Origin: a virus
DNA length: 64,000 bases
Reading direction: 5' to 3' (one strand)
Virus record (IMG/VR): IMGVR_UViG_3300045988_093513
Location: 1-64,000 of that record
This document shows positions 1-64,000 of the stretch, piece by piece; position 1 is the first letter of the stretch, and every line of letters begins with the position of its first letter. The translations under genes and the position numbers were made by a program. The notes beneath the pieces are model-generated. The model was given only the letters and a program-made list of their open reading frames with translations. It had not been told where the DNA came from and ran no database searches.

Positions 1-48
1 GCTAACTAATTACTATTCACAACTTACTATTCATATACTACTCTCATA

Positions 49-66
49 TACTACTACTACTACTAC
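49..66. repeat. (TAC)6 microsatellite in the 5' noncoding leader
   Basis: Six perfect tandem TAC units read directly from the sequence. Confidence 0.8.
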
Positions 67-268
67 TCTATACATATTACTTAAAAGGTGGGCTAATAAA
101 TAATCTTTCGCCGTTTTACATTAGGCTTTTCGCCACTTTTCACCACGAATTAAATTCGATTCCCACGAAGAAACATCGGCTTTTTCCCTTATATCTAGCG
201 ATTTCTCCGTATGGCTTTTCCTCAATAGTGCGTAGTGCAGGTGCACGAAACTATGGGGAAAACTGGAG

Positions 269-297
269 GTTGACAATCCACCGAAAGTTGACAATCC
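269..297 (+). promoter_or_regulatory. Direct repeat GTTGACAATCC x2 (at 269-279 and 287-297), each containing a TTGACA -35-like box. Possible promoter or operator.
   Basis: Two identical 11-mers 7 nt apart. A weak -10-like CATAGT lies 17 nt after the second TTGACA. Confidence 0.3.
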
Positions 298-383
298 CCA
301 CTTGAGCTTACATAGTGACCTGTCGAAAGTTGGCGGGTAGTCGACGGACGGCATACAACTAAACATCCTACGTGTAGTAGCTA

Positions 384-449
384 GAGGCTATCTATTTAAC
401 TCTCTAGCCACTGGCTATTACGCATGGGATAAGAGCTTGAGATAGCCCA
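384..449. repeat. Inverted repeat GAGGCTATCT...AGATAGCC flanking the nested palindrome TAGCCAcTGGCTA. Candidate operator or origin-like element.
   Basis: Read from the sequence. The region lacks a credible ORF. Confidence 0.35.
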
Positions 450-701
450 GCATTTCATACGTAAAGTGCTGGTCAACGTCAACAGAGCCAGCTATTAACG
501 CCTAAACAGTGGGGGTGAAGCGTACTCTTCACATCTACTTACGGATAAGTTATTAGCAAACCCTGGTTATTCTGGTTGAGTGAATAACAGTGAACGAGTG
601 CCTAAACCAATACTTGGGAGCACTATGTAGTTTTTCCAGCGGGTCTTTTCCTGATAAAAGCCTGCTTCCATTGTGTTAATTTTGCGTTGTTTTTATAGGG
701 G

Positions 702-899
702 GTGATTATTATGGCGTTAAAAGATATCGTGAAGGTTTCATGTACAAACTTCAAGGTATACGTGGGGGATAAGATGGTTTATTCCCCATTTAATGGTGTA
801 TTGGCACCGTTTTGGGATAAAAGAGTCCTCTGGATTGACTCAGCGGGTGATATTCTTCTGATTGGTATTGAAGGGAGTGATGAAGATGAGGAGAAATAA
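702..899 (+). CDS. Small hypothetical protein. The real start is probably the ATG at 711.
   Basis: ORF with a G-rich SD (GGGGGTGA) upstream. No recognisable domain. Confidence 0.3.
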   Translation: MIIMALKDIVKVSCTNFKVYVGDKMVYSPFNGVLAPFWDKRVLWIDSAGDILLIGIEGSDEDEEK

Positions 900-1026
900 A
901 ATCTCAATCGAGGAGCATAATGATAATGTTATGCTAGTCTTTTTGGGAACTATAATTGGAATGATTATGGTTCCGGTTTCATACCTGTTAGTAACTGTTA
1001 TGAAATAAACGAGAAAGGAGTGTGCT

Positions 1027-1494
1027 ATGGTCAAGAAAATCGATTGTAGTGTAAGTGGCTATCAGAATAGTCACTTCTTCGTAGAAGATAGCGGTATTAC
1101 CACTACAACCCTCGCTCAGATGGAAAGGTTTACAAAAGGGGATGTAACAGAGATTATCGCTCCCGTTTGGCAACTGTGTGATTCTCGTCATGAGAATCCA
1201 GTTGCTAACCTAGGTGGTATCTTCCCGAAATGCGTTGTTAATCCTATGGATACACGTAAGATGAGGGAAGAAGCCATCGAAAAAATTAAGCCGTATTACG
1301 GATTTGGGGATACCTTGTTCTGTGTAGTAACGGGGATGTCCTCAGCGTTGATTGCGTTAGTAAATGCATGCACAACGCTAGATGTGAAGCTATGTTTGCT
1401 TCACTACAATGTTGTTTACGAATGCTATCAAATGCAGCCTGTGGACAACTACTTCCTCGACAATAAGTTGAGATTAGCCGGAATACGGAGATAG
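1027..1494 (+). CDS. Hypothetical protein (155 aa)
   Basis: Strong RBS AAAGGAG 7 nt upstream of the ATG. No motif recognised. Confidence 0.5.
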   Translation: MVKKIDCSVSGYQNSHFFVEDSGITTTTLAQMERFTKGDVTEIIAPVWQLCDSRHENPVANLGGIFPKCVVNPMDTRKMREEAIEKIKPYYGFGDTLFCVVTGMSSALIALVNACTTLDVKLCLLHYNVVYECYQMQPVDNYFLDNKLRLAGIRR

Positions 1495-2229: not shown

Positions 2230-3135
2230 ATGCCAAGTTCAGAAGATTTAATGTTTGCCAATTATTCTAGCAAACTGGGGAGAATTATTACAGGGAGAAA
2301 CTGCTCCCTGTTAAAGGACGGTCGCCAGAGACGCCATTTCGGCATTGAAATCGAGGCTTGCGATTATGACCCCAATGACTATGTAGACTATGAAACTGGG
2401 GAGAATGCAAAGTATCGCCTGTTCAGTCCGTTTGACGGGATGGATAGTCTTGGGCAGATTAAGGATGATTGCTCCTTAGTCGGGAACCATTTCGAGTTTA
2501 TAACAGCCCCGATGACCATGGAGTTACTGAAGGGGCTTAATTGGGCAGGTTTCTTCGATGTTATTAGGTCTGCTGACTATCAACAGACTGACTTCGATGA
2601 GAGTGACGCAGCTGGGATTCACGTCCACGTCAACAGGAAGTCCTTCCACCATCCATTTGAAGCTGCCGTGAACGCATTAGCGTTCATTACGGAGAATGAG
2701 GATACAATCCGTCGGTTCGCTCGTCGCTCCAAGGAACAGTGGGATAACTGGTGCAGTTCACCATACGAATTGTCCCTCTGCCCCGATAGGTTCATCAGTA
2801 AAATCAAAAATGGGGATTATAGTCAATTTGGCTATGGGTATGATTCCCGCTTACGGGTGGACGAAACAAGGTACACATCGGTCAACTTTTGTTCCCATAA
2901 CACATGGGAACTTAGGATTTTCAACTCTACGTTGAGAACTCCGGAAATGTATAATATTCTGGACTTTGCCGAAGCGTTATGGGAACTGGCAGATACGGAC
3001 CACTACGAAATGAGCCTCGAGGCTATGAGTGACAAGCTCATGGAACTTGGAAATCCTACTGCTGCCAATGAGATGTTCCATCCGCCTATAGACACCTATG
3101 CAGACTACGACTACGGTTGCGACAGAGATGACTGA
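2230..3135 (+). CDS. Amidoligase (COOH-NH2 ligase, GCS2-like) family protein
   Basis: GIEIEACD (GxExE) motif near the N-terminus. GIHVHVNRKSF motif and the amidoligase-typical layout. RBS GGGGGAAC. Confidence 0.55.
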   Translation: MPSSEDLMFANYSSKLGRIITGRNCSLLKDGRQRRHFGIEIEACDYDPNDYVDYETGENAKYRLFSPFDGMDSLGQIKDDCSLVGNHFEFITAPMTMELLKGLNWAGFFDVIRSADYQQTDFDESDAAGIHVHVNRKSFHHPFEAAVNALAFITENEDTIRRFARRSKEQWDNWCSSPYELSLCPDRFISKIKNGDYSQFGYGYDSRLRVDETRYTSVNFCSHNTWELRIFNSTLRTPEMYNILDFAEALWELADTDHYEMSLEAMSDKLMELGNPTAANEMFHPPIDTYADYDYGCDRDD

Positions 3136-3253
3136 TAAATAGTGAGCCTATTGAGTGTGGGTAACTAAGTGTGTAACGATGTTACCCATACTAATAGCCC
3201 CATTATTTAGTAGGGGTAGTATTAGTTGCTACTGGACAAAGTAGCAGAAAGAG

Positions 3254-4324
3254 GTGTCTATGTGTATTATCGCAGTATATCCAAAGGGTTTGCCGTTTAA
3301 CAATGGAGAACTCAAGAAGTGCTTTGAAAATAACCCCGATGGTGCTGGGGTTATGTGGCAAGAAAAGGGAAAGGTCCATATCAAGAAGGGCTTCATGAAA
3401 CAGAAGTCTCTGCTTAAATTCCTGAAAACCTTGCCGACAAATGTAGACAGGGTGATTCATTTCAGAATCGCCACGTCTGGTAAGGTTAGCGGTGCTTGTT
3501 GTCATCCATTTCCCGTGGCTGGAGATTTCAAACAGATGATGAAAACGGAAAGCGTGGCACCAGTTGCCTACGCTCATAACGGCGTATTGACAGATTATAC
3601 GCCCAAGGAAGGTATGAAATCCCCATTCTCAGATACGATGATTTTCGGGAAAGAGGTGCTCAATCACCTGCTTGATACAGGTATTGACCTATTTGACCCG
3701 ATTATCGATGTCATGCTTGAGGCAACCATCGACGGAGATAGAATGGTTATCATGAACGACCATGAACTCATTACTCTTGGAAAGTTTGTCACAAGCAAAA
3801 CCAGTGGTGCTCAGTATTCAAACACGTCTTACTCTTACAGTAGAAACATATTCAAATCTTACGGCTACTATGATTATTATTCCGACCCATGTGCGTCTTA
3901 TTATTCTGGTGGTTGTAGTTCTAGCAAAACTACTGGCAAGAAAGGAACAACGGATACTAAAAGCGTTACGTTGTCAAAAGGGTATAACGATAGCGACATC
4001 TGTGTTAGCTTTACCGCAGAAATTACATTCGACCCGTCAAGTAAGGCAGTTCTTGGCTACACCCGTATGGACTACGAGAATTTCGTGTACGAGAACTTGG
4101 AAGAACGTAATATCTACGGCATCGACGTTGCTATCACTGGTGTAGGAGACCATGCTATTACGTTTGAGGTAAAATGTATGGCTTACATGAGTGAAATTTG
4201 TGCACCATTCCATAACATCCACAATGGCTCGACCATTCATGACACTTGGGTAAGTAACAATAAAGAATACGCAAATATCAGTGTTGATATTGCAATATCT
4301 GATTTGTGTTTTGATAAGGAGTAA
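3254..4324 (+). CDS. Class-II (Ntn-hydrolase) glutamine amidotransferase-like protein with a C-terminal S/Y/G-rich low-complexity tail
   Basis: N-terminal MCIIAVY places a nucleophilic Cys at position 2, as in Gn-AT class II. RBS AGAAAGAGG. Confidence 0.5.
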   Translation: MSMCIIAVYPKGLPFNNGELKKCFENNPDGAGVMWQEKGKVHIKKGFMKQKSLLKFLKTLPTNVDRVIHFRIATSGKVSGACCHPFPVAGDFKQMMKTESVAPVAYAHNGVLTDYTPKEGMKSPFSDTMIFGKEVLNHLLDTGIDLFDPIIDVMLEATIDGDRMVIMNDHELITLGKFVTSKTSGAQYSNTSYSYSRNIFKSYGYYDYYSDPCASYYSGGCSSSKTTGKKGTTDTKSVTLSKGYNDSDICVSFTAEITFDPSSKAVLGYTRMDYENFVYENLEERNIYGIDVAITGVGDHAITFEVKCMAYMSEICAPFHNIHNGSTIHDTWVSNNKEYANISVDIAISDLCFDKE

Positions 4325-9008: not shown

Positions 9009-9812
9009 CTATATAGTCATGCCAGCATCCATTGCTAACTTTAACTGTTCATTCCACATAGGATTTAAAAATCTATTCTTCGTGTCGCCACTCATTTGGC
9101 ATACAAAATATCCCATAGGTAACGGGCGTCCGCCACCCTTCTTAATGTAATCAGGATACGCCTGAAATGATGGCTGCTTAATCTCCCATACTGTTCTAAC
9201 CACTGGGCATTTAGCAAACACGTTATGTTGAATACTAATCTTTGGCGTGGCTGATGGTGCGTGCCTATGTTCTTTCCATACACAATCAGCATTGAAGTAA
9301 TCATACGCATCCTGTCTAACCATATGTCTATGTACAATGTAATGCACGTAACAATTCTTATTGACGTTGAAGTATACGATACCTTGGCTACCCTTATATA
9401 AATTTCTGTCACCTAATAGCGAGGCGACTACGCCTTCAATACTGATATATGTATCACTGTATACTCTGTCTGGATGATTACCAGATATAATTCCTAATAG
9501 TTTACCGCTATCATATAAAGGTTTAATATCATCAACGAGTGCATAGATTTGTTTATCGCCGCTCAATGTTTCCTCGATGATGCTACCTTTGCTATTCTTT
9601 GTCACCGTGTTAGTTGCATCACCGCCGATTACAACCTTCACGTTATCAGGTAAGCCACTCAAGAACTCAACCTCTTTCTTAAAATAGTCTCTGTCATTTA
9701 GCCCTTCGTGTATGTCAGATAACACAGCGAGATAACCGAAATCACCATTAACTCTACACTGTATTACGTGTTGCTTTAATGTCTCTTGAATAACTTTTTC
9801 TTGCGTAGCCAT
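9009..9812 (-). CDS. Calcineurin-like metallophosphoesterase
   Basis: Motifs LSDIHEG, GGDATN and GNHPD, matching DxH...GDxxD...GNH(D/E). Confidence 0.6.
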   Translation of the reverse strand: MATQEKVIQETLKQHVIQCRVNGDFGYLAVLSDIHEGLNDRDYFKKEVEFLSGLPDNVKVVIGGDATNTVTKNSKGSIIEETLSGDKQIYALVDDIKPLYDSGKLLGIISGNHPDRVYSDTYISIEGVVASLLGDRNLYKGSQGIVYFNVNKNCYVHYIVHRHMVRQDAYDYFNADCVWKEHRHAPSATPKISIQHNVFAKCPVVRTVWEIKQPSFQAYPDYIKKGGGRPLPMGYFVCQMSGDTKNRFLNPMWNEQLKLAMDAGMTI

Positions 9813-10225
9813 ACGTCCTCCAGATACTGTCTCATTCCTTTGCCATACTTACCACTGAGTAAGTCGCATCTAATGTCTTTAATCCACTTATCGTACTCTT
9901 TAGTGCACGGTTTATTTAATCGCTCCTGCCAATCCGGATACCTTTCTTTAACCATTGAGATGAACATGTCCAACATGTCCTGCTCCTCTTGTTCGATTAA
10001 AGTTTCTTCTATGCTAGGTGTACACGGCTCCTTACACCTGTAATTCATGGGCATCTTGTTGAACATCTTGAGGGCGATTCGTGTTTCACCGTATGCCCAC
10101 TGTCGTTCGTTAAGTCTAGTGATTCTTCTGATAGATGAACATACCCCTTTGTCGTTCAGCTTACCAGCTCGGTACTCCTCTATCATGCGATTCATAAACT
10201 TAACTGTATTAGGCCCCTTCGCCAC
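9776..10225 (-). CDS. Hypothetical protein (149 aa)
   Basis: ORF in the operon. No motif recognised. Confidence 0.4.
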   Translation of the reverse strand: MAKGPNTVKFMNRMIEEYRAGKLNDKGVCSSIRRITRLNERQWAYGETRIALKMFNKMPMNYRCKEPCTPSIEETLIEQEEQDMLDMFISMVKERYPDWQERLNKPCTKEYDKWIKDIRCDLLSGKYGKGMRQYLEDVWLRKKKLFKRH

Positions 10226-10237
10226 TCACATCACCTC

Positions 10238-12439
10238 TTATAGGGCACACACAGATGCGCCACACGAATCACACTGCCAGCAATGACCAGATAATTTCAC
10301 GTTCTTACTGTGACACTCTGGACATTCCATATCCGTCTGTCTATCCTCAACTTCTACATCCTGTACAATAGGCTCATGTGAATCAAGTGTATACGCATCG
10401 TTCAGTGTCACGCCTACCGCAAACCCTACGCTATCTGTATTCAGTTTAAACAACTGCTTAATGATAGCATCAATACTTACGCCGCACCGCATGGAAAGCG
10501 AGATAAGTCTAGTGATACCATCAACTTCATCCTTATGGCGCTCACTATTAACGAAAATCTCAAACATCTTATCGTCTTTCCAGTTAACTGTGATATACAA
10601 TTTAGTACCATCACCCATTACCTGTGTATATGTTTTGCCAACAAGTGTACCAATATCACCACGGCGTTCTGGTCTGATACTATCGTGAAGAATTACAGGC
10701 TTCTCTTCCTTCTTACTAAGTCCAAGGATATTACCTCTTGCACAATTATCTCTGAACACTGTGATACCTTTGCATCCTGCCCGCCATGCCGCATCATAGA
10801 TAGCAAAGATTTTATCAGGTGTAGCAGACTCTGGCAGATTAACAGTAGAACTGATAGCATTATCTACATACTTCTGCATAATTGCCTGTGTCAATACACG
10901 CTTGATTGGTTCAATGTCATGAGACTCTACAACATACGGGAACATCTTCTTAATATCTTCGGCACTTGTATCCATTGGCAGTTCATTACGTTCGAGCAAG
11001 CCCTCAATAGAGTGTGCGAATACTCTGAATGACTTACCCTGTTCTTCAAGTTTGTGTGTAGTTCTTTCGTAATACAGTTTATAGATTGGTTCGCAACCAC
11101 CAGTATATCTACCGGCCAGCAGACTAATACTACCAGTCGGGGCAACACTAATAATCTGACCATTAAGTAAACCATACTTCATAACACAAGCCTTTGTGTC
11201 ATTATCAAGAGACTGGAAGAGTTCTGACTTAGCGGTCTTGTCATAGTTGTATTCGCCGAAAGTATTGAAGTAATCATTAGACAGGAAAGCAGACGCCTTC
11301 ACTGCTTCATTCATTAAGCAACGGAACAACCTTTCAGTAAACTCAAGTGCCTCTTCACTTCCGTATTCAAGCCCAAGTTCCACAAGCATATCTGCATAAC
11401 CGAACACGCCCAACCCGATAGGTCTCCAGTCACGAATGTACTTACGGTTCTCTTTATATGGCTGTTTATCATACGAGTAATCGAGTGCGTCATTCAATGC
11501 TCTAACTGCTACATGAACTGCGTCAATAAACAAACCCCAAGCAAACTTACCAGTTGTCATGTCTACGAATTTAGCTAAGTTGATACTGCCTAAGTTGCAT
11601 GAACCCCACGCACCAAGAGGTGCCTCAGCGCAAGGATTTGTCGTAAGGATATGGAAGTTATCATATCCAGACAGAAGATTATATTCATTGAACCTATCAA
11701 TGAACAATGCACCTGGGTCTCCCCAGTTCCACTGACATTCACAAAACTTCTTAAAGAAATCACGGGCGTTAATTGTTTTCTCGATGTGTTCACCAGTAGC
11801 CTTCACATCAAAGTGTAACTTGTATGGTTTGTCACAATCTACCGCAGTCATAAACTCATCTGTGAATTTAATAGACACATTCATAGACTGAAGTCTATCA
11901 CCTTTCATCTTGACATCAAGCAGTTCTTCAATGTCTGGGTGGGAACAGTCGATAGATACCATCGTTGCTCCACGTCTTCCGTGCTGGCTAATAACATTAC
12001 CAGTCTCGTTGAACAAGTCAAGGAACGACACTGCACCAGTAGAAGTATTAGCGGCATTGTTTACTTTAGCATTACGTGGTCGAAGAATAGAAATATCTGT
12101 ACCAACTCCACCGCCTTTACTAAAGATACGTGCCATGTGTTTGTTAGCTTCATAGATTGCTTCGATAGTATCGTCTTCGATAGGGACTACGTAGCAATTA
12201 CTACCAGCCGCATTGATTTCCTCTTTGCGTCCTGCAAGGTACATAGTTCTTCCACCAAAGAAGAAAGTACCACTAGCTAACATGTTCTCAACTTTATCTC
12301 TAATACTTTCTTCGCAGATACTAGCTACTCTTTTACAGAATTCAGCTGGGGTTTCTGCATCATCTTTCGCATACTTAGAACGGAACACGTTGTACGCTAC
12401 CTCGTCATTTGCCCAGCTTACTTCGCTATCATGAATCAT
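10238..12439 (-). CDS. nrdJ: Ribonucleotide reductase, class II monomeric (adenosylcobalamin-type)-like
   Basis: NPCAEAPLGAWGSCNLGSINL active-site motif. 733 aa. C-terminal CxxC...CxxC zinc ribbon. Confidence 0.6.
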   Translation of the reverse strand: MIHDSEVSWANDEVAYNVFRSKYAKDDAETPAEFCKRVASICEESIRDKVENMLASGTFFFGGRTMYLAGRKEEINAAGSNCYVVPIEDDTIEAIYEANKHMARIFSKGGGVGTDISILRPRNAKVNNAANTSTGAVSFLDLFNETGNVISQHGRRGATMVSIDCSHPDIEELLDVKMKGDRLQSMNVSIKFTDEFMTAVDCDKPYKLHFDVKATGEHIEKTINARDFFKKFCECQWNWGDPGALFIDRFNEYNLLSGYDNFHILTTNPCAEAPLGAWGSCNLGSINLAKFVDMTTGKFAWGLFIDAVHVAVRALNDALDYSYDKQPYKENRKYIRDWRPIGLGVFGYADMLVELGLEYGSEEALEFTERLFRCLMNEAVKASAFLSNDYFNTFGEYNYDKTAKSELFQSLDNDTKACVMKYGLLNGQIISVAPTGSISLLAGRYTGGCEPIYKLYYERTTHKLEEQGKSFRVFAHSIEGLLERNELPMDTSAEDIKKMFPYVVESHDIEPIKRVLTQAIMQKYVDNAISSTVNLPESATPDKIFAIYDAAWRAGCKGITVFRDNCARGNILGLSKKEEKPVILHDSIRPERRGDIGTLVGKTYTQVMGDGTKLYITVNWKDDKMFEIFVNSERHKDEVDGITRLISLSMRCGVSIDAIIKQLFKLNTDSVGFAVGVTLNDAYTLDSHEPIVQDVEVEDRQTDMECPECHSKNVKLSGHCWQCDSCGASVCAL

Positions 12440-58094: not shown

Positions 58095-59057
58095 TTACGG
58101 CGCAACGGTTGGAGTAATAGTCTCCACGACAACTGGTTTCGGGTTAACCTTACCAGTCAGGTTCTTAATACGAGCGTTAGCATTCGGTGCGGTACATTCG
58201 ATAGATGCTACGCCAGTGATTACCTTTTCCTTATAAGTACCGACTCTCGGCGGTTCTTCAGTATGGAACGGAATAAGGTAGCCAAGTTTCCAATACTGCG
58301 GGTCGAGCAGGTCAACCACATCGTCAGAGTACATACGATGGGCTTCCAGACGAAGAGAACCAAAGTCAGTCTCGATGATTTCGAGAGAGGTGGTGATACT
58401 CTTGTCACCTGCCTGGCGAATCGGCAGTGCACCCTGAGTAAAGTCGGCGCATCCACGCTTATTACGTGCGGACATAATAGCGACGGACGGGTCGCCACCA
58501 CGCTGCCAGGTCAGCTGCATTGCGTCATTCAGAAGGTCGAAAGTAAGGTTGCCCTTAGCAACGTCCTTCGCTGCGTCAATGCAGTTCTGGAATGTGATGG
58601 AGCCCATCTTAGTTTCTTTAACTTTACCTTCACCGCTGGAAACACCATGACCATTTGCGTCATACTTGACGGAGTTCATAGCGCCTTCCGGAGTGTCATA
58701 CAGATAGAACGTATTAGCGTCCTTAACTGCTACGTAGTAGGCAACGTTTTCTTTACATACAGCACCACCACGAACGATGAGGGCATCGCCGTTTACAAAG
58801 CCGTGGTCGTTCAGAGTGAACTCACCAAAAGCTACGGTTACACCTTTCAGTTCATCTTCAAGGAAGTACGGAATACCACCAAAAGTACCAGCAACGTTTT
58901 CAGACATCGGGGTTGCAGTGGTGTTGTTTACGATAGCATATTCAAGGTCACCTGCGATTTCCTTGCCAGCCTTAACGAACTGGTACGCTACTTCGTCACG
59001 AACACCGTACTTTTTGATAGCCTGAGTGATATCAGAGATGTTATCGTTTGTGTTAAC
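58095..59057 (-). CDS. Major capsid protein, 3' exon (HK97-fold-like)
   Basis: The frame is open from 59057 (after an in-frame TGA at 59058-60) to the stop. The sequence is capsid-like and the position is portal-scaffold-capsid. The listed ORF from the first ATG (58907) is a truncation artefact. Confidence 0.5.
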   Translation of the reverse strand, partial: VNTNDNISDITQAIKKYGVRDEVAYQFVKAGKEIAGDLEYAIVNNTTATPMSENVAGTFGGIPYFLEDELKGVTVAFGEFTLNDHGFVNGDALIVRGGAVCKENVAYYVAVKDANTFYLYDTPEGAMNSVKYDANGHGVSSGEGKVKETKMGSITFQNCIDAAKDVAKGNLTFDLLNDAMQLTWQRGGDPSVAIMSARNKRGCADFTQGALPIRQAGDKSITTSLEIIETDFGSLRLEAHRMYSDDVVDLLDPQYWKLGYLIPFHTEEPPRVGTYKEKVITGVASIECTAPNANARIKNLTGKVNPKPVVVETITPTVAP

Positions 59058-59810
59058 TCATACTTTCATATGAGACCAGACTATATTATACTTAATCGGT
59101 GTTATCGTATAGTCGTTGGGATTTCATACGCTTTTCACAGTAATTATTTAACCTTTTCTGTTTACGTAAAATATTGAACTTTAGTCCAGATTCTATAAAT
59201 GACTTTAGGTTCATAGTGAAACTCAGTTGTACTTTGTTTTTGGTTCGTATTTCTCTTGTCTTACCACACGATACACCAAAGGATTGTAGCATCCTTTTTA
59301 TATCGTATGTCCAAGAGTATGTAGTTCCGTACCCCATCATCCAATTTGTATTACCATTTGGATTGGCACGCTGTGAGACCCAACCATCAGAATCAAGTAC
59401 ACCTTCTAAAAATTCTTTCTTTAACTCTTTGTCCCATTGATACACATAGTCTGGGATGTATCTACATCCAGCTGTGTCATCAACGAATATCTTAAATTCT
59501 TTAGAACATACTTGAAGATAGTATTTGTTAGTCCCTACCCTTTGGTGGACTTTCACATCTCTATTGATAAAACGTGATAAGTAATCAGCAACTTTACCAA
59601 TAAACTCTTTATCAATACATTCAAATGAGTATGCGTACGTGTTCCCTCTTTTGAAAACACTAGCATCTCCAAAGTAACAACCAAGTAAATAAGCGTATGT
59701 CTTATCTGCGGGTTTCCTATTCATAATACATATCCTTTCTATTTTTACACTTTGGTAAGAAGGGCTTTAAGGGTTTCCTGCATATGGATAACTTTTATAT
59801 GGGCAAACAT
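59058..59810 (-). mobile_element. Intervening element in the capsid gene. Probably a group I intron carrying a LAGLIDADG homing endonuclease.
   Basis: A 750-nt insertion between two in-phase capsid ORF halves. It contains a free-standing LAGLIDADG ORF in a different frame with its own RBS. Confidence 0.45.
59092..59724 (-). CDS. LAGLIDADG homing endonuclease
   Basis: Two LAGLIDADG motifs: AYLLGCYFGDASV and EFLEGVLDSDGWVS. RBS AAAGGATATG. Confidence 0.7.
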   Translation of the reverse strand: MNRKPADKTYAYLLGCYFGDASVFKRGNTYAYSFECIDKEFIGKVADYLSRFINRDVKVHQRVGTNKYYLQVCSKEFKIFVDDTAGCRYIPDYVYQWDKELKKEFLEGVLDSDGWVSQRANPNGNTNWMMGYGTTYSWTYDIKRMLQSFGVSCGKTREIRTKNKVQLSFTMNLKSFIESGLKFNILRKQKRLNNYCEKRMKSQRLYDNTD

Positions 59811-60119
59811 TTACCCATGCATGAACTGCTGAACAGTGTTGTACATCCAACGTCTCGGCACGGTTTCCGTGGTATCGAAGTTGATAACTTCAGGATGCTT
59901 GTTCACCATTGCCGGACGGAGAGAATCTCTCAGCCATTCATGTTTAGTGGATACTACGGTAGTTTTACCGAACATCTGTGTAAGTTTAGTTTTATCTGGG
60001 TCGAGGTTGGTAATGAAGTCAGACATATCTCTAACAGTACCAACGACGTTATAAGAGCGAAGGGCAGAACCTTTATTATGCGGGGCTGCTGCACCTGTAG
60101 CTGGCATACCTACTGCCAT
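59811..60119 (-). CDS. Major capsid protein, 5' exon (N-terminal about 100 aa)
   Basis: Same frame phase as the 3' exon. Terminated by a TAA that I infer lies inside the intron. Confidence 0.45.
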   Translation of the reverse strand: MAVGMPATGAAAPHNKGSALRSYNVVGTVRDMSDFITNLDPDKTKLTQMFGKTTVVSTKHEWLRDSLRPAMVNKHPEVINFDTTETVPRRWMYNTVQQFMHG

Positions 60120-60142: not shown

Positions 60143-60829
60143 TTATACGCCAAGCTCTTTCGCAAACCTAGATACGTATGCCGCCTGTTGGTCGTTAGTC
60201 ATCTGACCAAGCGCAGCGTAGTCCATAGTTTTCTGTGCCTGTGGCATTGCACCACGGTTATTTGTCGGTTCGACATACGGTGGACGTACCTGCGGCTGGA
60301 CAGGCCGAGGCATAGGCTGCGGAGCCTGCTGTGGCTGGTTGCCACGATGATAATACATATTCGATACGGCCTGCATGTAATTGTCAAGCACTTCCGCGTT
60401 ACCAGTCTTGAGAGCGTCCTGTACTTCCACATACATTTTGTACGGGAGGTTCTGGAGACTACTCAGAGCGAGCTGGTTAATCGTGTCGAAGTTCGGGTCT
60501 TGTCTGTATTTATTAGCAACAGATGCAATTCTTTGAGAAGCAGCTGCCTTTTCGGCTTCCTGCTGTTTCATTTCGTTAACCCTCTGTAGGGTGGCTGCTT
60601 TGACATTACCAACTTCATTGACATATGCTGCCATATGTTTACTGTTGTACTCGTCAAAATCTTCACCAAAGAGCTGTTTAACTCGGTCTTTGCAATACGT
60701 ATCAACCTGGTCGAGGTACGCTCTCTGGTCAGCCATAGCACGCTGCTGTACTTCTTCTGGGGACATCTGCGGCTGCTGGGGCTGAACATTCTGGGGCTGA
60801 GGGTTGTTCGCAAACTGCTGCATCATCAT
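60143..60829 (-). CDS. Gln-rich alpha-helical scaffolding-like protein. Possibly exon 2 of a split scaffold gene.
   Basis: Q/P-rich ends. The frame stays open about 66 nt upstream of the MMM start and encodes a matching QQRQ-rich sequence. Confidence 0.4.
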   Translation of the reverse strand: MMMQQFANNPQPQNVQPQQPQMSPEEVQQRAMADQRAYLDQVDTYCKDRVKQLFGEDFDEYNSKHMAAYVNEVGNVKAATLQRVNEMKQQEAEKAAASQRIASVANKYRQDPNFDTINQLALSSLQNLPYKMYVEVQDALKTGNAEVLDNYMQAVSNMYYHRGNQPQQAPQPMPRPVQPQVRPPYVEPTNNRGAMPQAQKTMDYAALGQMTNDQQAAYVSRFAKELGV

Positions 60830-61161
60830 CTGTCGCTGCTGTTCGAGAGCCTGACGCTGAGCTGCGAGTTCCTGTGTTTTCCTAGTGTCTTAACCTTCGA
60901 GTAAAGTCGTTAATTTTACCCCGTCATTCCACAGGAGAATGACTGCTGCATATTTCTATGCAGAAGAGACTATTTCTTCACCTTCTCCTTTCAGAGGTCA
61001 GGTGTCTGGCACTTCCGTCCACTTGGACGTACTCCCTGCAACGGGATAGTCGTTACGGGTTCCCAGCATAGCTGGGCTTCCCACGAGATTGCCCTCGTCT
61101 TTACGTTAGGGTGTTCCTCGTTTTCACCAGATTTAAATCAAGGATTTCTCCAAGAAGTGAC

Positions 61162-61569
61162 CTATTTTGTTAAGTCAGCCTGTCGCATATAACCATTACG
61201 CATTTCATCCATAGAAACCTGTACGTCCTGTCCATCTACACGGACAGTCTGCATTTCCGGCTGCGGCTGTGGTACTTCCTGCGGCTGTTCTTGGACGGGT
61301 TCTGGTTCATCATCATAGTCGCCTGTCGGTTCTCCGAAAAAGGCGTCGGCAAAAGTGACGTCCCCGTTCTCGTCAATACCAAATGCAGGTTCATCAGCGT
61401 CATTGTTCTGCGGTGCAGTCTGCGCATCCGGTGTTTCCACTGGCGCAGTTGTTGCAGGAACAGGTTCCTGAGCTGGTTCTACCATTGGCATTCCGTTCTG
61501 CATTTCTTCCATAAATTCCTCCTTTTTGCACTCCGTAAAGGTTGGTGCAGTAAAATATATATACGCCAA
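61162..61569 (-). CDS. Acidic scaffolding-like protein (TTG start). Possibly exon 1 of a split scaffold gene.
   Basis: A 135-aa highly acidic, Pro/Gln/Glu-rich protein. It sits between the portal-side genes and the capsid gene. Confidence 0.4.
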   Translation of the reverse strand: MAYIYFTAPTFTECKKEEFMEEMQNGMPMVEPAQEPVPATTAPVETPDAQTAPQNNDADEPAFGIDENGDVTFADAFFGEPTGDYDDEPEPVQEQPQEVPQPQPEMQTVRVDGQDVQVSMDEMRNGYMRQADLTK

Positions 61570-61726
61570 TAACCATGCAAAATTTGTTCGTTAAATAACG
61601 AGGTTTTACACGGTTTTGACGAAATTAACTGGCACGGATTGCTAGAATCGAACTAGCGAATTGCTGGGTCAAAGCCAGCCGCCTTCACCACTTGGCTAAA
61701 CCCGTATCACTATTTGTATAAGAAAA

Positions 61727-62563
61727 CTACCTATTATTCTGGTTGTATGCACGCAATGCATTAAATCCACGGATAAGTGGGTCGTGTTCATCGTGATATG
61801 CAGACGGGTTTGCATCCCTGTATGTCTGAGCATCAAGCTGATAATAGTCAGCAGGGCTAGGCTGTGCATAAGCGTTATCCATAGCGTAGTAGTCTGCTAC
61901 GGAATTACCTGGCATATCGAAGCCTTCAGAAGAACCAGTGGAACCAGAGTCATCTGGTACACCAAGCGCCATAGCATCCTGAGCAGCTGCCGGTCCATAG
62001 TTCTGCCGCATAGCAGCTTCATACTCCATCTGCTTACGAAGTTTTTCTCTTTCATACGCTTCATACTGAGCCTGTGTATGGTCGATACCACCATTGTTTA
62101 CAAGGTATTCATGCATACCCCAGTTCATCGGTGTCTTATCACGGTTAGCAATTTGTTCGTCTGTCCATCCTGCGTCTTTCATAAGCTGAATACCTCTATC
62201 GTTGATAGTATCGCCAGTATTAGCATATGTCAGCGGTGCATTAGGTGTACCAGAAGGTAAATTACGTGTAGCAAATTCATAAGAACCGGCCTTAGGTGTC
62301 GGCTTCAGCTGACTACCGTTATCGATAGCTGCCTGCCCACGGTTAGCGGACCGTACCCAAGCGTTACTATCATCACGGGTCGGTGCCATAAACCTATTAC
62401 GAATACGTTCACGCTCTTTGTCATATTCAGACATGGGAGCGTTTTCCTGTGCAGTTGGCGTACTGCCATGAATCTGATTGTAAACATCTGTGAGAGCTTT
62501 AGCTGCTTCATATCTTTGAACATCCGCCTGTCGAGGGATACTCCTCGTATACTTAATTGCCAT
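61727..62563 (-). CDS. Hypothetical head-assembly protein (278 aa)
   Basis: ORF with an AGGAGG RBS. Confidence 0.45.
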   Translation of the reverse strand: MAIKYTRSIPRQADVQRYEAAKALTDVYNQIHGSTPTAQENAPMSEYDKERERIRNRFMAPTRDDSNAWVRSANRGQAAIDNGSQLKPTPKAGSYEFATRNLPSGTPNAPLTYANTGDTINDRGIQLMKDAGWTDEQIANRDKTPMNWGMHEYLVNNGGIDHTQAQYEAYEREKLRKQMEYEAAMRQNYGPAAAQDAMALGVPDDSGSTGSSEGFDMPGNSVADYYAMDNAYAQPSPADYYQLDAQTYRDANPSAYHDEHDPLIRGFNALRAYNQNNR

Positions 62564-63999
62564 TAATAACCTCCTACTCCATTAGTCGGTTCAGCAGGTG
62601 CGCCATTAGGAACCCTATTATCGGCTGGCTGCTGACCAATTTGTTTGTCTGGAGAGAGGGCGTCACTACCTTGTCGCACAGTAGAAGTGACCGCTCCTCC
62701 TGCTCCTTGTGGTGCAGATACATTCTGCATAGGAACCGTACTCTGACCAGTGTTGTTTGTATTTGTTGGTAACGTATGATTCAAGAATACTACCTGCACA
62801 TAGGGGGGGAGTGAGTAGAGAACCTGAATCGGTAACGAGCCATACTGGAAGTAGTAAGCCACAACATCAGGGGGGAGAGTCTGAAGTGTTGCCTGAATGA
62901 TTTGTGCTTCAAGCATAGTACGCTGTTGCGCAACAACAGGGTCAGTAATATAGTCACCTGTATTTTTAATACCCATATTTTCCATCCAACGTTTCGTGAT
63001 GTTATAAATGTTATGTGGAGTTGCAACCGCAACACCAGTAGCGTTTACTTGCATGATAGCAGTCATGAGCGTCTGAAGCTGGGTATTCATAGCTTCTTTA
63101 CTCTGGATGGAGAGACCAGCGTTTACAACCAGATCGAAAGAGCCAGACAAGTCATCTGGTTTGATTTCCATTGGTTCCCCTGTTAATCGAATAACAGTGT
63201 TTTGGTCAATAAACTTTTGGTTCAAAGATATAAGAAAACGATATAGTTCATATACACCCGTTTCAGCAAACATACGAGCAATAAGTTCCAGTCGCTGATT
63301 AGATGCATTCATGATGGTATTGATACCGCTTGCTGTGTTATGTGTTACGGTATAGTGTTTGCCTACGCAGAACTGACCATCTTCGGCATCAACAGTTAAA
63401 CACCGCATTGGAATAATATCGGTCGGTTCGATTAATACTATTTTAACCCTATCAACACTACGTTTAGACTGTACATACTTGTTTGCTTTTCGGCTTAATC
63501 TAAATGGATTATCGAGGCAACTAATAGTTAAATGCCAATATGTACGACCTTCTTTAGCTAACTTGCCAGGGAATTGCTCTGACTTAGAATAATTCCAGCC
63601 AAAGGAACAAATCAAGCGTTCTACATCGTCCAATAACTGCCCGTTTGCTTGAGAGAAAATAGCCAACGAACCAGAATGGTGACAACCATCAGTGTCCATA
63701 AGTCCACGAAGAAGTTCCATACGCTGTCTATAAGAAGCACTAAAGAAAATCTCCGGTATGTGTTTACAGTTATCTTTCATGTCGTCGTATCTTGCATCGC
63801 GGGCAATGTGTAGTTTTCTAAGGATGGTGTGCAAGTCTGTGCCAACTATGTCATACGTAATAGCCTTTCCTGCGTTTTGGTGTGAAGACGGTCTGATAAA
63901 ACCACCTCTGAACTTTGCCCATTCGGACATGGCGTCCACTATTTCTTTATCCATTGAGGTAAAGCGATTGGTGTGTAAGCAGCCGTCGCCCAAGAACAC
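62563..63999 (-). CDS. Intein-containing packaging/structural protein (portal or large-terminase-like). The 5' part is outside the window.
   Basis: The ORF runs to the window edge. The N-terminal 221 aa seen are the C-terminal part of an intein. The remainder is the C-extein. Confidence 0.55.
   Translation of the reverse strand: MFLGDGCLHTNRFTSMDKEIVDAMSEWAKFRGGFIRPSSHQNAGKAITYDIVGTDLHTILRKLHIARDARYDDMKDNCKHIPEIFFSASYRQRMELLRGLMDTDGCHHSGSLAIFSQANGQLLDDVERLICSFGWNYSKSEQFPGKLAKEGRTYWHLTISCLDNPFRLSRKANKYVQSKRSVDRVKIVLIEPTDIIPMRCLTVDAEDGQFCVGKHYTVTHNTASGINTIMNASNQRLELIARMFAETGVYELYRFLISLNQKFIDQNTVIRLTGEPMEIKPDDLSGSFDLVVNAGLSIQSKEAMNTQLQTLMTAIMQVNATGVAVATPHNIYNITKRWMENMGIKNTGDYITDPVVAQQRTMLEAQIIQATLQTLPPDVVAYYFQYGSLPIQVLYSLPPYVQVVFLNHTLPTNTNNTGQSTVPMQNVSAPQGAGGAVTSTVRQGSDALSPDKQIGQQPADNRVPNGAPAEPTNGVGGY
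63337..63999 (-). mobile_element. Intein (partial) with a LAGLIDADG homing-endonuclease domain
   Basis: Blocks FLGDGCLH and LRGLMDTDGCH (LAGLIDADG x2). C-terminal splicing block LTVDAEDGQFCVGKHYTVTHN followed by the +1 Thr. Confidence 0.65.
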
Positions 64000-64000
64000 A

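Follow-up and report, generated by a model that had tools for sequence, protein, structure and literature searches.

To our knowledge, class 3 inteins, a rarer type, have been reported almost exclusively from P-loop ATPases and Cas4/RecB-type nucleases. What defines the class is the co-variation of a non-nucleophilic residue 1 with Trp B:12, Cys F:4, and Thr G:5 (PMC2807308), and its members usually have Thr or Ser at position +1 (PMC2807308; positions restated in PMC5050341 and PMC5222942). Here we describe an intein that interrupts the gene for an SU10-type phage portal protein, on the minus strand at the right edge of a 64,000-nucleotide stretch of viral DNA (positions 1 to 64,000 of IMG/VR record IMGVR_UViG_3300045988_093513; hereafter the window). 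From comparison of its sequence with those of relatives, we consider it highly probable that this element is a splicing-competent class 3 LAGLIDADG intein.

The class 3 prototype, the MP-Be DnaB intein of mycobacteriophage Bethlehem (PMC2807308), shares with the portal intein the non-nucleophilic residue 1, Trp B:12, Cys F:4, and Thr G:5, as well as a His-Asn end, Thr at +1, Lys at -1, a phage origin, and an embedded LAGLIDADG endonuclease; the length of 341 amino acids and the numbering of C320, T339, H340, and N341 also coincide. It differs in its host, a helicase that is interrupted in the ATPase P-loop (GK↓T/S, with the arrow marking the junction), whereas the host here is a non-ATPase portal protein and the site is LNK↓TA. 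MchDnaB-1 (Protein Data Bank (PDB) entries 6RIX and 6RIY) and Msm DnaBi1 (6BS8) align with the portal intein in blocks A, B, F, and G, including the H-x-W, RC(V/L)xVD, and THN motifs, but they are mini-inteins with no endonuclease and are inserted in the P-loop of bacterial DnaB. The class 3 inteins of actinobacteriophage TerL and Cas4 proteins (PMC5050341; bioRxiv 10.1101/2025.01.02.630785) have the same architecture and the same K↓T/S junction but different exteins, and some of the TerL inteins have demonstrated splicing and endonuclease activity. PI-SceI, the yeast VMA1 intein, has the same two-domain build of Hint and LAGLIDADG parts and is the best fold match of a model from the portal-intein family, but it is a eukaryotic class 1 intein (Cys1, Cys+1) with 16-17% identity.

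Phage portal genes that contain inteins have already been reported in cluster C1 mycobacteriophages (Kelley et al. 2016, PMC5050341). Those portals are of the IPR009279 type, unrelated to the SU10 type, and belong to other phages and hosts; the available part of that article does not report their inteins as class 3. In its accessible portion, a 2025 survey of 784 actinobacteriophage inteins (bioRxiv 10.1101/2025.01.02.630785) places class 3 in only 4 host proteins; it mentions TerL, Cas4 exonuclease, one helicase, and one minor capsid protein among class 3 hosts, and discusses portal inteins without giving their class. As far as these partial texts go, a class 3 intein seems to be of an undescribed type for a portal, and an earlier mention elsewhere is possible. 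What is new is the extein, the site, and Met at position 1, where Ala is commonest among the aligned relatives; the mechanism is not new. The clade places a class 3 intein in a structural, non-ATPase virion protein, and current understanding is not overturned.

A portal gene interrupted at a conserved Lys-Thr

Window positions 62563..63999 form, on the minus strand, one reading frame, which has 478 sense codons and ends in a TAA stop codon (62563..62565) that overlaps the ATG of the next gene. The frame is open at the right edge, and the remainder of this portal precursor gene lies past base 64000; the 'GTG start' given for it in a list of open reading frames (ORFs) is merely its first complete in-frame codon, Val. 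The C-extein occupies 62566..63336 and comprises the last 257 amino acids of an SU10-type portal protein, corresponding to positions 434-584 of the 593 in the Pfam model SU10_portal (PF23899). This model matches amino acids 220-366 of the window ORF (E 3.2e-39, 135 bits). It also matches the full portal of L001, a related genome described below, over profile positions 1-584 (E 1.9e-148, 496 bits), in a match that spans the insert. Portal matches in the PDB include 9NWM and 7SXK at E about 1e-62 and the SU10 portal 7Z44 at 4e-20. A preliminary description, made from the window sequence without database searches, had spoken of a portal/terminase-like gene with a C-extein of about 257 amino acids. 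The length is exact and the portal assignment stands, on the match of PF23899 to the extein, but the terminase assignment does not: matches to 'terminase' and 'helicase' families in PHROG are confined to amino acids 2-229 of the ORF. This stretch is the intein, and the matches arise from related inteins within those families. We rejected a terminase as host since these matches do not extend into the extein; in L001 the terminase-like gene is a separate ORF upstream of the portal gene (2784..4235). These similarities identify the host gene as the portal gene, not a terminase gene.

The insertion point can be read from alleles that have no insert. A protein search returned many insert-free portals that are 95-96% identical to the 257-residue C-terminal part (P0001-P0009, 674 or 701 amino acids); at the junction they read ...GVTRYNQGLDASSLNK↓TASGINAIMNAS..., with SSLNK↓TASGIN around the insertion point. 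Five intein-free DNA alleles (L020-L024) read ...AGCTTGAA(C/T)AAA↓AC(C/G)GCAAGCGGT..., one of them, L022, being ...AGCTTGAATAAA↓ACCGCAAGCGGT... around the junction. From the corresponding window DNA, ...ACACATAAC↓ACAGCAAGCGGT..., the last base of the insert is 63337. The insert measures 1023 bp, or 341 codons, and lies in frame between AAA (Lys) and ACN (Thr). When it is removed in silico from L001, the resulting 701-residue protein is 99.0% identical to P0005 with no gap; for L001 we calculate a precursor of 117.6 kDa, a spliced portal of 78.9 kDa, and an intein of 38.8 kDa. Identical junctions in three independent assemblies rule out an assembly chimera.

The interrupted bond, K444↓T445, is the Lys↓Thr of a conserved portal motif, RYNQGLDxxSLNK↓TA(S/T)GI, which shows little or no variation in the portal alignment. 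We suspect that the site lies at or beside the channel-lining 'tunnel loop', ahead of the long wing helix; the predicted structure of the intein-free portal P0005 has a mean predicted local distance difference test score (pLDDT) of 38.6. Intein-free genomes of the same lineage are common, with P0005 alone representing 376 sequences. Cultured phages are more distant: a megablast search of window positions 61700-64000 against 50,697 GenBank phages gave no match, those phages contained 0 places with at least 80% coverage spanning both intein and portal C-extein, and their nearest portal is ~30% identical. By these comparisons the phage has no close cultured relative and belongs with uncultured phages of ~65-70 kb.

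The intein carries the class 3 signature

The window holds the C-terminal 221 of about 341 intein residues (63337..63999), with the boundary taken from the intein-free alleles. This part contains most of the LAGLIDADG domain and Hint blocks F and G. The first LAGLIDADG motif, VFLGDGCLH (63973..63999), has a conserved acidic residue, an Asp kept in nearly all relatives, and the second, MELLRGLMDTDGCHH (63676..63720), has an Asp that is invariant in relatives. With both acidic residues in place, the domain, a LAGLIDADG endonuclease of the single-chain kind with two motifs, is matched above threshold by LAGLIDADG_3 (PF14528; 25.7 bits against a cut-off of 22.5) on amino acids 93-160 of the window ORF. 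In the relative L018, an Asn stands in place of the Asp in motif 1. The intein ends with ...MRCLTVDAEDGQFCVGKHYTVTHN (that is, ...IPMRCLTVDAEDGQFCVGKHYTVTHN; 63337..63414). Within this end, block F, IPMRCLTVDAEDGQF (63370..63414), is matched by VRCVEVD in 6RIX, the class 3 MchDnaB-1 intein, and includes Cys F:4 (codon TGT, 63400..63402), which is residue 320 of the full intein, is invariant in the family alignment, and is the predicted initiating nucleophile of the class 3 reaction. Block G, FCVGKHYTVTHN (63337..63372), contains Thr G:5 (Thr339, codon ACA, 63343..63345), the penultimate His340 (63340..63342), and the terminal Asn341 (codon AAC, 63337..63339). Directly after the Asn comes Thr+1 (codon ACA, 63334..63336), the first residue of the C-extein and the predicted second nucleophile, which in the intein-free alleles follows the Lys of ...SLNK↓TASGIN. 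In a tblastn search, amino acids 1-224/250 of the window ORF match inteins of phage helicases and terminases with E down to 4e-17. At these scores the matches to inteins and portals are not attributable to chance.

The missing N-terminal part is available from two further carriers in independent assemblies, L001 (IMG/VR contig UViG_3300045988_070858) and L026 (ERZ507072 NODE-83). Over the 663 nucleotides in common, the window intein is 99.7% identical to that of L001 and 99.4% identical to that of L026, and both carriers have intact portal genes of 1042 and 1015 codons, respectively, for which the ORF lists pick different start codons. Exact-word scans of IMG/VR found the L001 contig only, and a window-specific word had no match in metagenomes; a word common to the carriers found L026 as the third carrier, 90% identical in its flanks. 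A protein search with the whole intein returned no full-length precursor, every match being shorter than 600 amino acids. The window comprises most of a ~65-70-kb genome, with the terminase-like gene, the portal N-extein, and the intein start outside it. L001 positions 3..1392 match window positions 1391..1, which places the two ends of the window about 4.6 kb apart in related genomes. The missing part of the intein is therefore not at the opposite end of the window, as the ~4.6 kb falls outside it.

In L001 and L026 the insert begins ...SSLNK↓MLDINTPVPMANGSSKLLKDIVDGDMIVG..., with MLDINTPVPMANG as its first residues, and ends ...TVTHN↓TASGIN. It includes the N-terminal Hint subdomain with blocks A and B. 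Residue 1 is Met, the intein starts with MLDINT, and residues 1-5 (MLDIN) include no Cys, Ser, or Thr. Block B contains GGEHLW, with His66 at B:10 and Trp68 at B:12. We infer the N-terminal 120 residues of the window copy, including Met1, block A, and Trp B:12, from these two near-identical copies. The full signature is then Met1, His66, Trp68, M-R-C-L-T-V (with Cys320), and T-V-T-H-N↓T, of which the window itself shows Cys F:4, Thr G:5, the His, the Asn, and Thr+1, and L001 and L026 show Trp B:12. That Met1 is the true first residue is supported by the PDB class 3 inteins, which align residue 3 to residue 3.

Together, these data confirm several elements of the preliminary description, which had proposed an intein in a head gene with two LAGLIDADG endonuclease blocks, a C-terminal splicing block, and Thr at +1. 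Each of the motifs it quoted is found at 63334..63999, and the intein-free alleles now supply exact bounds. It had also held that an upstream sequence with no N-terminal splicing block would make the domain a fused rather than a spliced endonuclease; such a block is present in L001 and L026. Its phrase 'classic intein features' is right as to the intein but not as to the class, as residue 1 is Met and accompanies a Trp-Cys-Thr signature. A canonical class 1 intein does not fit, given Met1 and no nucleophile in residues 1-5 of L001 and L026, nor does a class 2 (KlbA-like) intein, given the presence of the Trp-Cys-Thr triplet (definition in PMC2807308). In searches with profile hidden Markov models (HMMs) of the kind it had suggested, LAGLIDADG_3 scored above its cut-off, and the NCBIfam intein and Pfam Hint models gave only sub-threshold matches, with Hom_end_hint at E 0.004 on the N-terminal part.

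The signature is shared by the family. A profile alignment took in 14 locus-derived relatives plus 120 database proteins, and across ~115 relatives hardly any depart from His B:10, Trp B:12, Cys F:4, Thr G:5, and Asn G:7. Both junctions could be read in 79 aligned sequences (the 14 locus-derived ones and database relatives). Residue 1 is Ala in 41 of these, Met in 20, Gly in 15, and Asp, Gln, and Ser in one each; position -1 is Lys in nearly all, and position +1 is Thr or Ser in most. Met1 occurs in all 15 portal-clade members seen, while Ala or Gly dominate elsewhere. The portal intein is only about 25-35% identical to its non-portal relatives. A sequence comparison with the PDB ranks the class 3 DnaB inteins 6RIX, 6RIY, and 6BS8 highest for the Hint domain (E 4.7e-9 to 6.7e-7), and PI-SceI matches the endonuclease part.

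We examined the fold in P0122, an intein of the same portal clade and site with 46% identity, which was modelled with AlphaFold 2 (AF2) from a 51-sequence alignment. The model has a pLDDT mostly above 90 over the intein region. In a Foldseek search of the PDB it matches PI-SceI (E 1.8e-20, template modelling (TM) score about 0.6), the TliVMA, PhoVMA, and PI-PfuI inteins, and, for the endonuclease, I-DmoI; its Hint part matches MchDnaB-1 (37% identity, root-mean-square deviation 1.9 Å) and Msm DnaBi1. Blocks F and G in the window, blocks A and B in L001 and L026, the PDB sequence matches, and this model together indicate a Hint fold.

Screens that require Cys1 or Ser1, or that use standard Hint HMMs, miss such inteins or split the gene. 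A search limited to Cys1 or Ser1 would have wrongly rejected this intein, and several database gene calls begin at the intein's own Met.

Predicted splicing pathway and competing explanations

The chemistry proposed here is taken from published class 3 work (PMC2807308, PMC5222942). A precursor of ~118 kDa would be translated, in which Met1 could not initiate splicing. Cys320 (F:4), activated by His66 (B:10) and Trp68 (B:12), would attack the Lys(-1)-Met1 bond to give a thioester branch at block F, from which the N-extein would be transferred to Thr+1. Cyclisation of Asn341 would free an intein of ~39 kDa, and an O-N shift would create the native ...SLNK-TASG... bond, yielding a 701-residue (~79-kDa) portal collinear with the intein-free alleles. 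The freed LAGLIDADG intein could then cut the intein-free portal alleles of co-infecting relatives at AAA↓ACN, where repair would copy the intein in (homing). We infer splicing, the class 3 route, and endonuclease activity for this intein. It is speculative that Cys F:4 makes portal maturation, and hence head assembly, redox-conditional, as reported for the class 3 intein Msm DnaBi1.

Several points weigh against a splicing-competent class 3 intein. The window ends inside the intein, so that Met1, block A, and Trp B:12 lie past base 64000, and standard intein HMMs match the N-terminal part weakly. Sister portal inteins carry a Cys at position 2 or 3 (MCDIHH... in L002-L012, MLCIHT... in L007, and MLCVET... 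in L018/P0013) that this intein, with MLDINT, does not have. The penultimate His is replaced by Ser, Ala, and Arg in L014, L018/P0013, and P0122 (TLTSN, TVTAN, and TVTRN), respectively. The case for the portal clade is made from sequence and predicted structure, and the signature alone cannot separate the class 3 from the class 2 route (PMC5222942).

Splicing could thus follow a class 2-like route, in which Thr+1 attacks the N-terminal junction directly and no branch forms at block F, or the sister clades could splice in a class 1-like manner through their Cys at position 2 or 3. A non-nucleophilic residue 1 is compatible with the class 2-like route, and, until a Cys F:4 mutant has been examined, either route is in principle open to an intein bearing the class 3 signature (PMC5222942); the MCD... 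and MLC... starts of sister portal inteins favour the class 1-like variant. However, class 2 is defined by absence of the Trp-Cys-Thr triplet (PMC2807308), which is present here and near-invariant in ~115 relatives, the closest solved structures are class 3 inteins, and the first five residues of MLDINT include no Cys, Ser, or Thr. We therefore regard these routes as very unlikely. Still more improbable, in our judgement, is a fused or decayed endonuclease or Hint-like insertion that no longer splices, whether tolerated by the portal or present in a defective phage. The missing N-terminal nucleophile, the weak HMM matches to the N-terminal part, and the rearranged copy in the relative L015 speak for such decay. 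Since the insertion motif is invariant or nearly so and the portal, a dodecamer, is essential, an unspliced precursor with a 39-kDa insert is unlikely to be tolerated. Moreover, every catalytic position is kept, many independent assemblies have an intact ORF of 1015-1060 codons, the boundaries agree with the intein-free alleles to the codon, and the ratio of nonsynonymous to synonymous substitution rates (dN/dS) among sister alleles (L002, L003, L006, L008, and L009) is 0.04-0.15 in the N-terminal Hint, endonuclease, and C-terminal Hint parts, which indicates purifying selection on both domains.

A splicing class 3 intein could also have a dead endonuclease and be inherited only vertically, no longer mobile. 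Decayed endonucleases are common among inteins, but here both LAGLIDADG acidic residues are kept and the dN/dS of the endonuclease part is 0.05-0.15 in the sister alleles. Between the three carriers (the window, L001, and L026) the intein DNA is 99.4-99.7% identical, whereas the C-extein is 90.7-97% and the next gene 79-91% identical, so that the flanking genes differ by 3-21%; and close relatives with and without the intein coexist. We consider a dead endonuclease unlikely. An intein identity far above that of the flanks is the pattern expected of recent horizontal spread among diverged genomes, and these sequence comparisons fit an active, recently spreading homing element.

Probable spread among related phages

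Closely related genomes with and without the intein, together with a near-invariant intein in diverged genomes, make good material for studying natural homing. Related inteins with 43-56% identity occupy the same site in the otherwise very different portals of L007, L013, and L014, whose only strongly common extein stretch is (S/T)RYNQGxDxxSLNK↓TA(S/T)GI. A rough neighbour-joining tree groups the portal inteins in a single clade, and the inteins of every insertion site likewise cluster on their own.

Over the family, the junction falls in a GK↓S/T context of the P-loop type in 44 sequences, in NK↓T of portals in 13, and in (Y/F)K↓T of the nuclease D-x-K type in about 13, and the portal site has only the Lys↓Thr dipeptide in common with the usual class 3 sites. 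Lys at -1 is almost universal over unrelated hosts, including P-loop GK↓S/T, nuclease D(Y/F)K↓T, dCTP deaminase LEGK↓SS, methylase YGK↓S, and portal LNK↓T. Its near-universality suggests that the intein or its endonuclease requires this residue at the junction. A tentative extension of this idea, possible but in our view doubtful, is that class 3 inteins are tied, by their chemistry or by endonuclease specificity, to Lys(-1)↓Thr/Ser(+1), and that the portal clade arose by an ectopic jump of a phage P-loop intein, for example from a terminase, to LNK↓TA, where alone a conserved portal motif offers a comparable dipeptide. If true, class 3 would extend from ATPases and nucleases to a structural virion protein, and the portal clade would be a natural system for studying how inteins colonise sites.

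One relative has an aberrant copy. The portal-intein ORF of L015 (3907..6411) leaves the family just past LAGLIDADG motif 2 (...DDVVRL↓FIDWIRMYHE..., with the arrow here marking the point of departure) and never regains the C-extein. This copy is either rearranged, decayed, or an assembly chimera.

Other intervening elements near the portal gene

The preliminary description had also proposed a LAGLIDADG element in the capsid gene, and this gene is indeed interrupted by one. The capsid gene (SU10_MCP), also on the minus strand, is broken after codon 102 at window position 59814 and resumes at 59042. The intervening element of ~770 bp (59043..59811) contains a 210-residue LAGLIDADG ORF (59092..59724). 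An intein was rejected here, given that exon 1 is followed by an in-frame stop and that this ORF is a free-standing one, and the element is intron-like. Its only group I match, at 59057..59192, is weak (17.5 bits, E 0.079).

Between the portal and capsid genes lies a scaffold-like gene that is split into 61162..61569 and 60143..60829. It is interrupted by an ORF-less group I intron on the minus strand (60887..61174), identified by a match to Rfam RF00028 at 60946..61181 (84.5 bits, E 4.7e-21). The scaffold-like gene is a single ORF of 361 residues in L022-L024 and of 418 residues in L001, and in L022-L024 both this gene and the capsid gene are uninterrupted. At the capsid site, L001 (9973..10252) and L026 (4219..4498) carry a 280-bp element with 82% identity to the intron in the scaffold-like gene of the window (60886..61174), so related introns sit in different head genes of sister phages. 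Within 4 kb, therefore, the window phage has three head genes that each hold an intervening element. The two of these elements that are not inteins vary between relatives, and this block of head genes looks like a hotspot for selfish or mobile intervening elements. In L020, an ORF for a NUMOD4+HNH_3 endonuclease (9545..10048) lies inside the scaffold-like gene, and L021 has a capsid-gene interruption of ~315 bp (10565..10880). A tRNA-Gln gene with anticodon TTG is located on the minus strand at 61630..61705 (ARAGORN; Rfam tRNA, 64.8 bits), between the gene downstream of the portal gene and the scaffold-like gene.

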